The notes beneath the pieces are model-generated. The model saw only the letters and a program-made list of their open reading frames with translations, was not told the DNA's origin and did not search any database. Positions 24,515-52,610 of a stretch of 64,000 bases of DNA are shown piece by piece. The stretch's first letter is position 1. Every line of letters begins with the position of its first letter. The stretch covers positions 896,001 through 960,000 of the forward strand of contig OZ241865.1 of assembly GCA_965203275.1 (NCBI GenBank). The letters are read 5' to 3'. Origin of the DNA: Bdellovibrionales bacterium (GTDB lineage: Bacteria; Bdellovibrionota; Bdellovibrionia; Bdellovibrionales; JAUICD01). The translations under genes were made by a program, and so were the position numbers.

Positions 24515-25550
24515 TTTTCACTAAAAATAAACCAGCCTCTGTTTCACTCAAAGTGAACTGGCCTCTGGCCACTTTTGGACAATGACCGCAAAGGCTTTCG
24601 CCTTTGACAAAATGGTCATTGCCTCAAAAGCCTGTTCACTTTGAGTAAGGAGGATCCCTTCGTTTTTTTACACAATGTTAAGGAAAATATCCTTCTAATA
24701 ACAGTTAGCCCGACGACTTTCGTCCTCGATCAAAAGCTGGCTACCTCAAAAGCTTGTTCAATTTTAGGAAGGAGGATATCCTCATTTCTTAACACAATGT
24801 TAAGGAGTTTGTTTCACTCAAAGTGAACTGGCCTCTGGCCACTTTTGGACAATGACCGCAAAGGCTTTCGCCTTTGACAAAATGGTCATTGCCTCAAAAG
24901 CCTGTTCACTTTGAGTAAGGAGGATCCCTTCGTTTTTTTACACAATGTTAAGGAAAATATCCTTCTAATAACAGTTAGCCCGACGACTTTCGTCCTCGAT
25001 CAAAAGCTGGCTACCTCAAAAGCTTGTTCAATTTTAGGAAGGAGGATATCCTCATTTCTTAACACAATGTTAAGGAGTTTGTTTCACTCAAAGTGAACTG
25101 GCCTCTGGCCACTTTTGGACAATGACCGCAAAGGCTTTCGCCTTTGACAAAATGGTCATTGCCTCAAAAGCCTGTTCACTTTGAGTAAGGAGGATCCCTT
25201 CGTTTTTTTACACAATGTTAAGGAAAATATCCTTCTAATAACAGTTAGCCCGACGACTTTCGTCCTCGATCAAAAGCTGGCTACCTCAAAAGCTTGTTCA
25301 ATTTTAGGAAGGAGGATATCCTCATTTCTTAACACAATGTTAAGGAGTTTGTTTCACTCAAAGTGAACTGGCCTCTGGCCACTTTTGGACAATGACCGCA
25401 AAGGCTTTCGCCTTTGACAAAATGGTCATTGTCTCAAAAGCCTGTTCACTTTGAGTAGGGAGGATCCTTTCGTTTTTTAACACAATGTTAAGGAAAAAGT
25501 TCCTTCATCACTTTCACTAAAAGTAAACTGACCTCTGGTCATTTTTGAGT
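24515..25550 (+). repeat. 270-bp tandem array (~3.5 copies) built from family A elements
   Basis: Units start at 24541, 24811, 25081 and 25351; the same 61-aa spurious ORF recurs three times. Confidence 0.95.
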
Positions 25551-25583
25551 TAGCAGTGTCTTTTTGTTGGATATAGTAAAAGA

Positions 25584-26003
25584 TTAAGTGGAAGGTTTAG
25601 ATAGCAACTCAAATATCTTATCAAGACGTCGATTGGTATCTTTATTTTGTGCGGTTAAGTCTTTATAGTTTTGGTCAATCTTCTGCTCAAGTGCTTTAGT
25701 ATTATTATCAACTTTCTGCTCAAGTTTATCAACTTTATGCTCAAGTGCCTTAGTATTATTATCAATTTTCTGGTCAAGTGCTTTAATATTATTATCAATT
25801 TTCTGATCAAGTGCCTTAATGTCGTCCTTCATCTCTTTAATCTGTGAGGGTATATGATTACTGACTTGTTCTTTAATATCCTTCTTAAAATCTTTGAATT
25901 GTTCCTTGAACTGTTCTTTAAAAGGTTCAATATAAAACCTCACTATGCCAATTAAGCTGACAAAGAAAACTATGAAAGTTACGATTATTTGCAAAAACTC
26001 CAT
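25584..26003 (-). CDS. Small TM plus coiled-coil repeat protein
   Basis: N-terminal TM; KALDQKIDNN-type 33-bp repeats. Confidence 0.75.
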   Translation of the reverse strand: MEFLQIIVTFIVFFVSLIGIVRFYIEPFKEQFKEQFKDFKKDIKEQVSNHIPSQIKEMKDDIKALDQKIDNNIKALDQKIDNNTKALEHKVDKLEQKVDNNTKALEQKIDQNYKDLTAQNKDTNRRLDKIFELLSKPST

Positions 26004-26095
26004 ATTTTAATACCTCTATTTTATATCATTATACCCTATTAACATTAAAAGTCAACCGCCTACATTAAACTATAACAACATGCAACATCTTAACT

Positions 26096-26224
26096 GACTA
26101 AAATAAACAGCTTTTTTGATACGAAACTTTGTTGGCTTGCTAACTACCTAAAGAATCTATACATTTTAAGCAAGGATGTCCTCATTTCTTAACACAATGT
26201 TAAGGAAAAAGAGTTTCTTCTGAT
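26096..26224 (+). repeat. Degenerate family A copy
   Basis: 3' end ggatgtcctcatttcttaacacaatgttaaggaaaaag intact; stems decayed. Confidence 0.6.
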
Positions 26225-26235
26225 AGCTTAAGCGT

Positions 26236-51078: not shown

Positions 51079-51211
51079 CTCATTCTTGTTATCTTAAGTT
51101 TAATAGTAAAAAATCATTTAAGTCAAATATACTTTGTTTGTCATAACATTTGACTGACTTATAACTGTTCTAAGAATGATATGTATTATTGTGTGACCTT
51201 CTCTACAAAGA

Positions 51212-51403
51212 TCATCCTTCTGGGATCCGGGATCGAGCAACCCGGCATCAGAAAGAACTCTTTTTCCTTAACATCATGTTAAAAGAGGAAAGGATACTTT
51301 CTACTAAAAGTGGTCAGGCTTTCTAGGTTGCCAGCATTTGAGAAGGCGATAGCCTTCGGCTGGCAACCAGAAAGTAGCCAGAGGCTAGACCACTTTTAGT
51401 GAA
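51212..51403 (-). repeat. Family A full copy plus tail (cleanest example)
   Basis: Stems 51303-15/51388-400, 51319-24/51369-74, 51326-35/51359-68, 51342-47/51352-57, 51375-79/51383-87. Confidence 0.93.
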
Positions 51404-51495
51404 CCAACAGCGAATATTTTATATAGAAATATTGTAAAGCTTTAGGTGGGCTTAGAGGCTTAGAGGTTGAAATCAACTGGTTTTGATTTAAGGAA

Positions 51496-52155
51496 TTATA
51501 CATTTAGATTGAGTTGTTTGGGTTTGAAAGTTTGAGGTGAATTCACAAGTTTAGCACTGTCACCGACTGCCTTAATCACAAATAATCCTTGTCCCTCTGC
51601 ATATTTGATAAGGAGCTTCTCATTGTCTGCTTTCAAATAACCTATAGCAATGTAAACTTTTTTATTGGAAAATCCATTGTCTTTGATAGCTAGAAAATTT
51701 TGTACTTTTTTAATAAAGTCTTTTACTTTTGTTTTTGTCATTTTCTTTTTAGCTTCTGTTATAATGACTTTATCACCATTGATGGTGATAGAATCAAACT
51801 CAAACTCAAGCGGAGTGGCACCATCCATAAAACAGTAAGTTTTTTTGTTGATAGTTTCTACCTTGCCTTTGATGATCCCATAATCTTCAAATAGCCTTTC
51901 TACATTGTCAGAAATAAGAATCTCTACAAAATCTCCCCATCTATGATCCCAATCACCTCTTAATTTATTAATATTATTTGCTGTCTGTCTAGTCACTTTG
52001 TCTATCTCTCCACTTAATTTGTCTATATTTTGACGTGTCTCGTCTATTTTTTGAGCTAGATTTTTCTGCACAGCAATAACTTCTTTCAGTGCCTTCCACA
52101 CTGCTTCAGGTGTATGATCAGATTCTTTTTTCTTTTTGTTGTTTTGATTAGCCAT
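51496..52155 (-). CDS. Coiled-coil plus PD-(D/E)XK-like nuclease domain protein (DUF3782-like), copy 1
   Basis: WGDFVE..., EFDSITINGDKVIITEAK (D...ExK), YAEGQGLFVIKAVGD. Confidence 0.75.
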   Translation of the reverse strand: MANQNNKKKKESDHTPEAVWKALKEVIAVQKNLAQKIDETRQNIDKLSGEIDKVTRQTANNINKLRGDWDHRWGDFVEILISDNVERLFEDYGIIKGKVETINKKTYCFMDGATPLEFEFDSITINGDKVIITEAKKKMTKTKVKDFIKKVQNFLAIKDNGFSNKKVYIAIGYLKADNEKLLIKYAEGQGLFVIKAVGDSAKLVNSPQTFKPKQLNLNV

Positions 52156-52160
52156 ATTTT

Positions 52161-52610
52161 TTTCACTAAAAGTAAACTAGCCTCTGTTTCCCTAAAATTG
52201 AACTAGCCTCTGGCTATTTTTGGGCAGTTAGCCTTTGATGACGGCGGTAGCCGTCGGGCTAACTGCCAGAAAACATGCCAGAGGCATGATGCATTTTGAG
52301 TGAATTAGAGGCATATCTTGTTTCCCTAACATGGTGTCAGAAGCAAGGAGATCCGCTCTACTCAAAATGAGCAGATTTTTGAGGCATTGCTCTTTTTAGA
52401 CAGCGATAGCTGTCAGAGCAATGCCCAAAAACACACCAGAGGTGTGGCTCATTTTGAGTGAAATGTTAAGGAAAATGTCTTTGATTATCGGGCTATAATG
52501 CCAGAGGCATGATGCATTTTTTACAGGCATATGTATTTTTTATTGAGCAGATTTTTGAGGCATTGCTCTTTTTAGACAGCGATATACTAGAGGTGTGGCT
52601 CATTTTCGAA
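52161..52610. repeat. Cluster of nested and inverted family A copies
   Basis: tttcactaaaagtaaactagcctctg|tttccctaaaattg...; inverted copies end ttttgagtgaa at ~52303 and ~52463. Confidence 0.88.

Follow-up and report, generated by a model that had tools for sequence, protein, structure and literature searches.

Introduction

REP, BIME and REPIN sequences are short, imperfect palindromes of about 20–40 nt, often arranged as inverted doublets, that are mobilised by RAYT (TnpA-REP), a Y1 HUH protein whose gene is usually flanked by the repeats. Insertion sequences of the IS200/IS605 group (IS608, ISDra2) move as single-stranded DNA (ssDNA) by a "peel and paste" route, inserting 3' of a fixed tetra- or pentanucleotide with a lagging-strand bias. 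Small dispersed repeats of the Nostocaceae reportedly consist of 20–40-nt modules that insert cleanly, both halves of the host being kept, and chimeric retro-pseudogenes of the U6-L1 type are made by template jumping of reverse transcriptase. Template switching (copy choice; fork stalling and template switching, FoSTeS; microhomology-mediated break-induced replication, MMBIR) is not known to be position-specific. Here we describe Family A, a structured repeat of a Bdellovibrionales bacterium (GCA_965203275.1), starting from a window (throughout, the whole stretch of 64,000 nt that was analysed: contig OZ241865.1, positions 896,001–960,000) in which copies of the repeat are joined to one another at one exact point.

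The joint lies directly after the letters CCTCTG in a small hairpin (P2) of a resident copy, where a second copy begins with its own 5' end, the cap (written CCTCTG/cap below, the slash marking the point of joining). The observed product consists of letters 1–26 of the resident followed by the whole incoming copy; it is one-sided, and the body of the resident is overwritten or shortened. We conclude that joining directly behind CCTCTG in P2 is genuine, recurrent and tied to that position, and that it does not go back to a few duplicated events.

Family A resembles REP/BIME/REPIN sequences in being very abundant, intergenic, non-coding and hairpin-forming, in its mosaic clusters and in its conserved structure. 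It differs from them in that no RAYT/Y1 gene was found (PF01797, 0 matches), in its 143-nt three-helix unit, in its one-sided joints with a 5' stub and in occupying 6–8% of the genome. With IS200/IS605 it appears to share a 5' end behind a short conserved word (here TYTG), the absence of target duplication, hairpins near the ends and a single-stranded target word; unlike in that group, TnpA was not found, there is no lagging-strand bias, the right-hand joint is missing or ragged and the word is unused outside the repeat. Of the defining features of REP/REPIN and of IS200/IS605, a RAYT or TnpA gene, a short palindromic unit and a lagging-strand bias were looked for and not found. Similar to microhomology-driven template switching are the 0–5 letters shared at joints, the carriage of donor flank, the small target losses without duplications and the one-ended product, whereas reuse of one position about 170 times and entry into the donor always at its 5' end are unlike known template switching. 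The self-nesting mini-repeats of the Nostocaceae are likewise short structured repeats that land in repeat loops, those of their own kind included; in Family A, however, the 3' part of the host is lost or overwritten and a 26-nt 5' stub is left. U6-L1 chimeras have the same layout (a complete 5' piece followed by a second template that begins at its own 5' end, the pieces sharing one orientation and being stackable), but for Family A no reverse transcriptase was found and DNA from upstream of the donor is sometimes carried along. As for the features of miniature inverted-repeat transposable elements, the two ends are alike by eye in only 8–10 of 12–13 letters, no duplication is seen and target DNA is replaced in the two cases with two traceable flanks; families of DDE transposases were not searched. 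A surface-level literature search on Bdellovibrionota repeats and on nested small repeats returned no published description of the repeat or of the joint. We place Family A with the structured non-autonomous bacterial repeats, a known kind, set apart by an unusual, self-directed and one-sided joining.

Results

Family A copies are joined at one point in the P2 hairpin

A first-pass annotation of the window had reported four CCTCTG/cap joints, and all four were found exactly where it had placed them: the pattern CCTCTGTTTCMCT has four matches in the window and none in each of 100 shuffles. Its observation that the host copies carry different variants also held, the four stubs representing four P1/P2 alleles (AAAAATAAAC.CAG, CAAAATGAGCC.ACA, AAAAGTAAAC.TAG and AAAAGTGGTC.TAG). 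The joints and the copies around them are as follows (inner, the copy that starts at the joint; outer, the stub before it).

24536–24548, 45004–45016 and 52181–52193, plus strand: exact matches to the joint pattern CCTCTGTTTCMCT
49929–49941, minus strand: exact match to the joint pattern CCTCTGTTTCMCT
24516–24541, plus strand: orphan 5' stub (cap, P1 5' arm, P2 5' arm and loop; ends CCTCTG), allele AAAAATAAAC.CAG
24542–24683, plus strand: inner full copy, model 1–143, allele CAAAGTGAAC.TGG, nhmmer 139 bits
44983–45009, plus strand: orphan 5' stub of 27 nt, allele CAAAATGAGCC.ACA
45010–45125, plus strand: inner copy of the invader type TTTCCCT / AAAATTGAAC.TAG, model 1–105
49936–49961, minus strand: orphan 5' stub, allele AAAAGTGGTC.TAG, cap variant GCTCACT
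49851–49935, minus strand: inner copy, model 1–85, broken at model 85 by the next copy, 49703–49844
52161–52186, plus strand: orphan 5' stub, allele AAAAGTAAAC.TAG, abutting the start codon of the open reading frame (ORF) 51496–52155 (minus strand)
52187–52337, plus strand: inner copy of the invader type AAAATTGAAC.TAG, closed again by an inverted 5' part
45401–45542, plus strand: free full copy, preceded by ..TTCTG (a leader of the TYTG kind)
46258–46396, plus strand: free full copy, with ..AACTG before it; the copy that was folded (P1, P2 with loop TCT, P3)
12822–12828, minus strand: start of a 5'-truncated copy at CCTCTGG behind a G-rich module, an isolated case

The inner copy at 24542–24683 is the first unit of a tandem array that ends at 25493, in which a 270-nt unit (a full copy plus a 5'-truncated copy, model 39–143) is repeated four times head to tail. 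On its 3' side the inner copy at 45010–45125 runs into the inverted 5' part of another copy, the P3 hairpin being common to both. The break of the copy at 49851–49935 belongs to a second class of junctions (CCTCA+TTTGAT/cap). The first-pass annotation was right that the two free copies are preceded by CTG (45400 and 46257), but this is one instance of a genome-wide YTG rule. It had further described copies breaking off at CCAGAGG. That is correct for 12822–12828; the break near 45109 is a small internal deletion in the inverted 5' part, and such breaks do not form a recurrent class. Genome-wide, 13 of 885 P2 cores have no recognisable cap upstream, of which about two are, by reading, real truncations at the CCAGAGG point.

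The source genome is closed (2,567,810 bp), and an exact scan of it gave 166 CCTCTG/cap joints. Recognisable cap and P1 letters stand in the 24 nt upstream in 160; the other six comprise, by reading, four degenerate stubs and two ambiguous cases. Stub length at the joints is 26–27 nt. A looser pattern, CTCTGNNTCMCTNRAA, found 172 joints in this genome, 33 in a relative of the same genus (G001) and 2 in a member of another genus (G004), and its reversed control found none in any of the three; the stubs of G001 carry G001's own alleles. When the letters upstream of 5' ends were tallied, as the first-pass annotation had proposed, CCTCTG proved to be the commonest hexamer (143 of 1111 ends). The scattering of junctions at random along the element, named there as the outcome that would speak against a fixed site, was not seen: joints concentrate at one structural position. 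Cap-to-cap distances peak at 26–28 nt (274 pairs), with lesser peaks at 19 (51 pairs), 43, 53, 70–71, 81–83 and, in tandem arrays, 144–147 nt. Units running from cap to CCTCTG occur singly (835), in double stacks (126) and as three triple and two quadruple stacks. A set of 138 joints is spread over 77 combinations of outer and inner type.

Beyond these genomes, a scan of collected genome contigs gave, among the matches listed, almost only single chance matches, together with one Bdellovibrionales metagenome-assembled genome carrying a two-joint stack. No match was obtained in metagenome contigs (two joint patterns) or in viral contigs (one pattern).

The joint lies at the loop of a conserved three-helix fold

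The Family A profile, built from 577 clean copies, describes a unit of 143 nt. It gave 1923 full or partial matches genome-wide with a summed length of 198,822 bases, or 156,845 distinct bases (6.1% of the genome), and the share of the genome under Family A can be put at 6–8%. Nearly all of it is intergenic, only 1,112 of the 156,845 element bases lying inside crude ORFs. Orientation relative to neighbouring genes is unbiased, and no promoter was identified inside the unit. Among 40 relatives searched, two (G001 and G004) carry the repeat.

The unit is predicted to fold as a three-way junction: P1 has 13 bp, the 5-bp P2 carries the loop TCT, and P3 is a long hairpin. An alignment of 16 copies, to which the two other genomes contributed one copy each, showed compensatory changes at 25 of 43 predicted pairs, three of them among the five pairs of P2. 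Folded as ssDNA, the copy at 46258–46396 has a predicted energy of -36.1 kcal/mol (z = -9.7). Of 813 single copies, 762 have cognate P2 arms; seven different pairs of complementary arms were observed. In model coordinates CCTCTG occupies 21–26 and the loop 23–25; G26 pairs with C22 and closes the loop, so that the joint 26/27 lies one base inside the 3' arm of P2. As TCTG could belong either to the loop of the host or to the usual leader of a 5' end, the cut can be placed only to within 4 letters.

Several further properties of the unit were seen in passing. Its two ends form a weak terminal inverted repeat: the 5' end and the reverse complement of the 3' end (..GTTAAGGAAA) are alike in 8–10 of 12–13 letters (e.g., 46258–46270 and 46388–46399). 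In about 310 copies the last letters are instead a perfect complement of the cap (..AGTGAAA). Copies truncated at the 5' end that share a common 3' end are frequent. Two more modules are joined to Family A at recurrent points, a G-rich GGGTGGGGTTAGGGA block (12829–12850) and runs of CCGGATCCC-like heptamers (46420–46470). At one locus of G001 (L008, 1201–1800), three Family A copies each stand beside a repeated fragment of a tRNA 3' end, and the flanking DNA has apparently been copied together with the repeat.

CCTCTG is rarely joined outside P2

In profile-annotated DNA, the CTG at model 26 is followed directly by a cap in 100 of 1079 cases. Other YTG sites rarely are (TTG at 43, 9 of 77; TTG at 65, 3 of 422), and no cap follows at any other position, for instance TCTG at 37 (0 of 319) or 49 (0 of 183) or TTG at 36 (0 of 814) or 102 (0 of 589), in a tally that is blind to stubs shorter than about 25 nt. 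The TCT(G) that is used stands in the P2 loop; the unused TCTG at 37 and 49 lie inside P3. Outside the repeat, CCTCTG occurs at 991 sites (931 expected) with at most 2 joints, and CCTCTGG shows no restriction-like avoidance (207 observed, 191.7 expected). The sequence alone thus makes no target, and the P2 context is needed. Microhomology in TCTG or YTG as the sole cause was rejected on the evidence of the unused sites inside the repeat.

The incoming side follows a rule of its own. YTG precedes 635 of 1104 5' ends (57.5%, against a background of 3.5% per position), the general leader being TYTG, and at least two flank families (F23 and F65) have an empty paralogue in which the leader GTTTG stands already. 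Additional classes of junction have fixed linkers: GCC+GT(C/T)(A/T)(T/G) at model 22, GACCGC+GTTTG at 49, GCCTTC+TTATCTT at 64, CCTCA+TTTGAT at 85, AGGGAG+TTAGTTG at 111, the tail followed by GTT(T)G in tandem arrays, and CCTTAACA of an inverted tail. Those at 49, 64, 85 and 111 have one fixed linker each and recur 16–50 times. Some linkers are the upstream flank of the donor family, joined through 4–7 shared letters (e.g., ..GTCAAGCC GT(C/T)AT/cap), which indicates that donor flank can be carried and that short words common to both partners are used in joining. With a strict pattern, only four fold-back palindromes having CCTCTGG at their centre were found.

The product is one-sided

The first-pass annotation had read the joints as copies nested into one another. 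Nesting in the sense of clean insertion was not borne out. Genome-wide, only 2 of 902 P2 3' arms stand behind anything but their own 5' arm, and no profile match starts at model 26–29. One of the two arms belongs to a perfect nest (genome 759636–759828), whose insert ends ..CTTACACCTTG before G27 of the host. Otherwise hosts resume late if at all, 8–27 letters further on. Simple nesting was accordingly rejected on three grounds: the one-sided joint, the 2 of 902 host remainders and the ragged, later restarts of the host.

The arms that follow a joint tell which unit they belong to. For 124 double stacks that could be scored, the next P2 3' arm matches the inner unit in 119 (15 of which fit both units) and the outer unit alone in none; P1 fits the inner unit in most stacks and the outer alone in six. 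Since the arms of the body fit the inner unit and, in P2, never the outer alone, the outer unit is an orphan 5' stub and the inner unit the real copy. The opposite arrangement, with the 26-nt stub as a mobile unit landing in P2, was rejected, as no body is cognate solely to the outer unit.

Remnants of the host can nonetheless be recognised downstream. Behind 50 of 131 inner copies there is a 5'-truncated remainder, compared with 109 such cases among 835 single copies (odds ratio 4.1, P = 6e-11); such copies, starting at model 31–53, come after the donor tail, a small extra hairpin (P6) and 7–12 more letters. Among 83 cases, 24 have a remainder whose P1 arm matches the outer stub (14.4 ± 3.2 under permutation). 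True Russian-doll loci that have lost little DNA also occur, for example one with the order stub A, stub B, copy C, B remainder, A remainder (genome 358,6xx–358,900, minus strand).

Paralogous flanks give a view of loci before and after joining. Forty-eight joint loci have a flank family of 2–15 members, and for 27 of these a paralogue has an intact unit in the corresponding position. That unit is of the stub's own type at 9 of the 27 loci, where 3.0 would be expected. Four of eight before/after pairs are collinear with a gain of 24 to 29 nt, the body of the resident being swapped for another allele. Both flanks could be traced against an "empty" paralogue in two cases, in which 230 and 325 nt of other DNA had been replaced; no target duplication was seen in either, and clean two-ended insertions were not found. 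Mismatch of the P2 arms is associated with mismatch of the P1 arms (33 copies, odds ratio 4.4, P = 5e-7), as exchange in register at that point would produce.

Hosts are drawn by abundance, invaders are not

Type use was analysed for 130 joints after duplicates had been collapsed. Use as host (outer) type tracks the abundance of single copies (Spearman 0.70, P = 0.002), and use as invader (inner) type does not (Spearman 0.15, P = 0.57). Of the 130 inner copies, 63 belong to just two types (42 and 21), and several types that are abundant are never found as invaders. The outer type is close to independent of the inner type (mutual information 1.35 bits versus 1.16 ± 0.06 bits shuffled, P = 0.003), and most joints are therefore separate events. 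Identical inner copies with the same right flank also recur behind different stubs. Stem alleles are combinatorial, and replacement of a whole copy at fixed flanks occurs.

Enzyme searches

The mechanisms that the first-pass annotation had named (HUH-type nicking, RNA self-cleavage and target-primed insertion) received no support from domain and RNA searches. In the closed genome, 0 matches were found to the Y1 HUH transposase family that includes RAYT and TnpA (PF01797; the control was positive in 6 of 14 genomes) and 0 to reverse transcriptase RVT_1 (control positive in 3 of 14), and relaxase and Rep_trans searches found none. The Y2 HUH transposase family of IS91 and rolling-circle elements (PF04986) also gave 0 matches, but its control was positive in no genome. 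Only two tyrosine recombinases are encoded. Rfam gave 0 matches at gathering thresholds over the window, and at E ≤ 1 only a chance snoRNA match (E = 0.7) and no ribozyme in 44900–46500. Transposition of ssDNA by HUH enzymes is expected to give a bias of orientation between replichores; Family A shows none, plus and minus copies being about equally frequent in every 100-kb bin and on both sides of the GC-skew extremes.

One nuclease family is expanded in this genome and has a member in the window:

49996–51078, minus strand: gene for an Rpn-family PD-(D/E)XK nuclease of 360 aa with a tract of 4-aa repeats (PF12784, 89 bits; TIGR01784, 111 bits)

The last two codons and the stop codon of this gene are supplied by a Family A cap. 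The genome holds 14 copies of the Rpn nuclease domain, several of them truncated by repeat blocks. Within the taxonomic family, the three repeat-bearing genomes have 14, 5 and 1 copies, and the other two genomes 0 and 0. In PMC5350276, Rpn nucleases are described as leaving 3'-OH ends that can act as priming sites, joining is reported, and the recombination that they stimulate is RecA-independent. Rpn-family genes are present and expanded here, and their link to the repeat is that of a candidate: Rpn-family nucleases may, speculatively, be a source of DNA ends.

Other proteins encoded between the repeats were noted. Between Family A copies, ORFs 45153–45377 and 45638–45937 (both minus strand) look like separated C-terminal (repeat tract and helix-turn-helix-like) and N-terminal Rpn-like pieces. 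Two paralogous proteins, 51496–52155 and 52807–53592 (both minus strand), combine a coiled-coil N terminus with a D...ExK motif and have no Pfam or NCBIfam assignment; a Family A stub borders directly on the start codon of the former. This coiled-coil family has about 11 copies here, 6 in G001, 3 in a further genome (G003) and none found in G004, and it was rejected as the driver of the repeat, as its distribution does not match (present in G003, not found in G004). Between the repeat clusters, 46652–49558 (plus strand) encodes, judging from its translation, a 968-aa ankyrin-repeat-like protein with a proline-rich N-terminal linker.

Discussion

The account we lean towards, without regarding it as probable, is that a recurrent 3' DNA end at the tip of P2 primes the copying of another copy from its TYTG-led 5' end and that homology resolves the event. 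A nick, a break or a stalled nascent strand would end after G26, with TCT(G) exposed in the loop of the folded strand. This end would pair by 3–4 letters, TCTG either with the TYTG leader of a donor or with the CCTCTG of a donor that already stands behind a stub, and a polymerase would copy the donor from cap to tail, often into the DNA beyond. The new strand would then rejoin the resident locus through homology or microhomology in P3 or the tail; such a return would leave neither a right-hand counterpart of the joint nor a duplicated target. If the same end were used in register, ordinary chimeras broken at the P2 loop would result. Synthesis could equally run in reverse, a strand being copied towards the donor cap and then jumping into the exposed loop. 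Either way, the process might be likened to primer-template switching or to one-ended gene conversion.

A number of observations weigh against this account. The break or 3' end at its start is inferred from end products alone, and a microhomology of 3–4 letters gives no reason for entry into the donor precisely at its cap every time. The perfect nest at 759636–759828 shows that insertion can be conservative, both of its joints being YTG/G, as from a strand-transfer enzyme. In G001, CTCTG/cap stands behind non-stub DNA at 3 of 10 inspected joint loci, as would suit targeting by sequence or a leader that is carried along. A further hot spot lies 19 nt from the cap (51 joints), behind G or A, and hence does not follow a TG rule. 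The dominance of two invader types while abundant types never invade is not accounted for, and invader status shows no correlation with copy similarity, a proxy for youth (rho = -0.21, P = 0.48), so that youth of the invader types was rejected as the cause of the bias. The small excess of mutual information shows that some pairs of stub and copy have spread as units. The co-occurrence of Rpn genes and repeat comes from only five related genomes, and no Family A was found in four other Rpn-bearing genomes of the order, one of them with 14 copies; a search of five genomes (the four Rpn-bearing ones among them) with covariance model R1, scoring 150 candidates per genome and run without a positive control, likewise returned nothing. 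Rpn genes are also described as toxin-antitoxin defence (PMC10400941). Given the few genomes, the occurrence of Rpn without the repeat elsewhere and this defence role, we name Rpn only as a candidate.

Unlikely, in our judgement, is a dedicated site-specific strand-transfer enzyme, HUH-like or other, that cuts after (T)YTG ahead of the 5' end as well as in the exposed P2 loop and unites the cut ends, the remainder of the host being lost secondarily. Its action would be comparable to IS200/IS605 insertion 3' of a fixed tetranucleotide. Such an enzyme would explain why an exact joint recurs 166 times, why TYTG stands ahead of 57.5% of 5' ends and already in the empty sites of F23 and F65, and why no target duplication is seen; the insert of the one perfect nest also ends in TTG before G27 of the host, the fold leaves the TCTG of the loop single-stranded but places the unused TCTG at 37 and 49 in paired regions, and the three G001 loci with CTCTG/cap behind non-repeat DNA point the same way. 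It is opposed by the searches, in which Y1, relaxase and Rep_trans were not found, Y2 gave 0 matches with a silent control and only two tyrosine recombinases appeared, as well as by the unbiased replichore orientation, the 991 unused CCTCTG sites outside the repeat and the right-hand side, where a reciprocal joint is practically absent (2 of 902) and the joints are ragged. We consider it distinctly unlikely that there is no hot spot at all and that one or a few ancestral 26-nt duplications, arising by slippage between the leader YTG and the CTG at 24–26, spread with the repeat and were reshuffled by gene conversion. Direct repeats YTG ... CTG do flank the 26-nt unit, and the combinatorial stem alleles, the replacement of whole copies at fixed flanks, the slight association of outer and inner types, the identical inner copies with right flank behind different stubs and the recurrence of other classes (x = 49, 64, 85 and 111) 16–50 times with fixed linkers all suit this scheme. 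It would require crossovers in the last 6 letters of the 26-nt arm nearly always, however, and it is at odds with outer types that are roughly a random draw from the residents, with stacks of three and four units and nests ordered A, B, C, B remainder, A remainder, with own-type pre-insertion paralogues in 9 cases where 3.0 are expected, and with G001 stubs made of G001's own alleles.

A route through RNA has a slim chance: a transcript would be cut after CCUCUG, and a reverse transcriptase reaching the 5' end of one RNA would jump to the 3' end of such a 5' fragment, giving stacks of stubs comparable to the chimeric retro-pseudogenes of animals. The asymmetry observed is the one that this route predicts (5' stubs only, in the same orientation, stackable, each ending at the two ends of an RNA), and 5'-truncated copies with a common 3' end are frequent, but RVT_1 was not found in the closed genome, Rfam gave no match at gathering or at E ≤ 1, there is neither an orientation bias relative to genes nor an identified promoter within the unit, and some joints (the GCC+GTCAT class) carry the upstream flank of the donor, unlike an RNA with a fixed 5' end. 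That the joints are assembly chimeras of a repeat-rich metagenome-assembled genome, which the first-pass annotation had named as a possible refutation, we judge very unlikely, to the point of being negligible. Contigs assembled from public short reads (14 runs) do break inside repeats over 43500–53400, for example at 45007, two letters before a joint, and apparent joints in them are cross-mappings between copies. The exact joint nevertheless appears 172, 33 and 2 times in three separate assemblies with a reversed control of 0, and it combines allele-specific stubs with one structural position, where random chimeras would spread along the unit.

It is conceivable, if doubtful, that Family A is a non-autonomous bacterial mobile element of a new kind, one that would multiply by "loop-primed copy-in". 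Understood in this way, and with the same reserve, the tip of its own hairpin would be the attachment point, a resident copy would be opened and a second copy written over it from a fixed 5' end, without a transposase of a known class and without a reverse transcriptase; the family would expand by self-invasion, and the stack of 26-nt stubs would record the order of invasions. An element whose landing place is its own loop would be able to spread without an element-specific target in the host genome, and this would explain how a 2.6-Mb genome comes to have 6–8% of its length in one 143-nt unit, nearly all of it intergenic. The stacks of stubs offer a readable order of events, which is rare among bacterial repeats, and the joint is a precise molecular signature that could serve as a marker, by PCR or at the level of reads, for activity in culture or in a community and for hunting the enzyme. 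If the process is instead replication-coupled template switching at a small hairpin, Family A would be among the clearest natural records of it.

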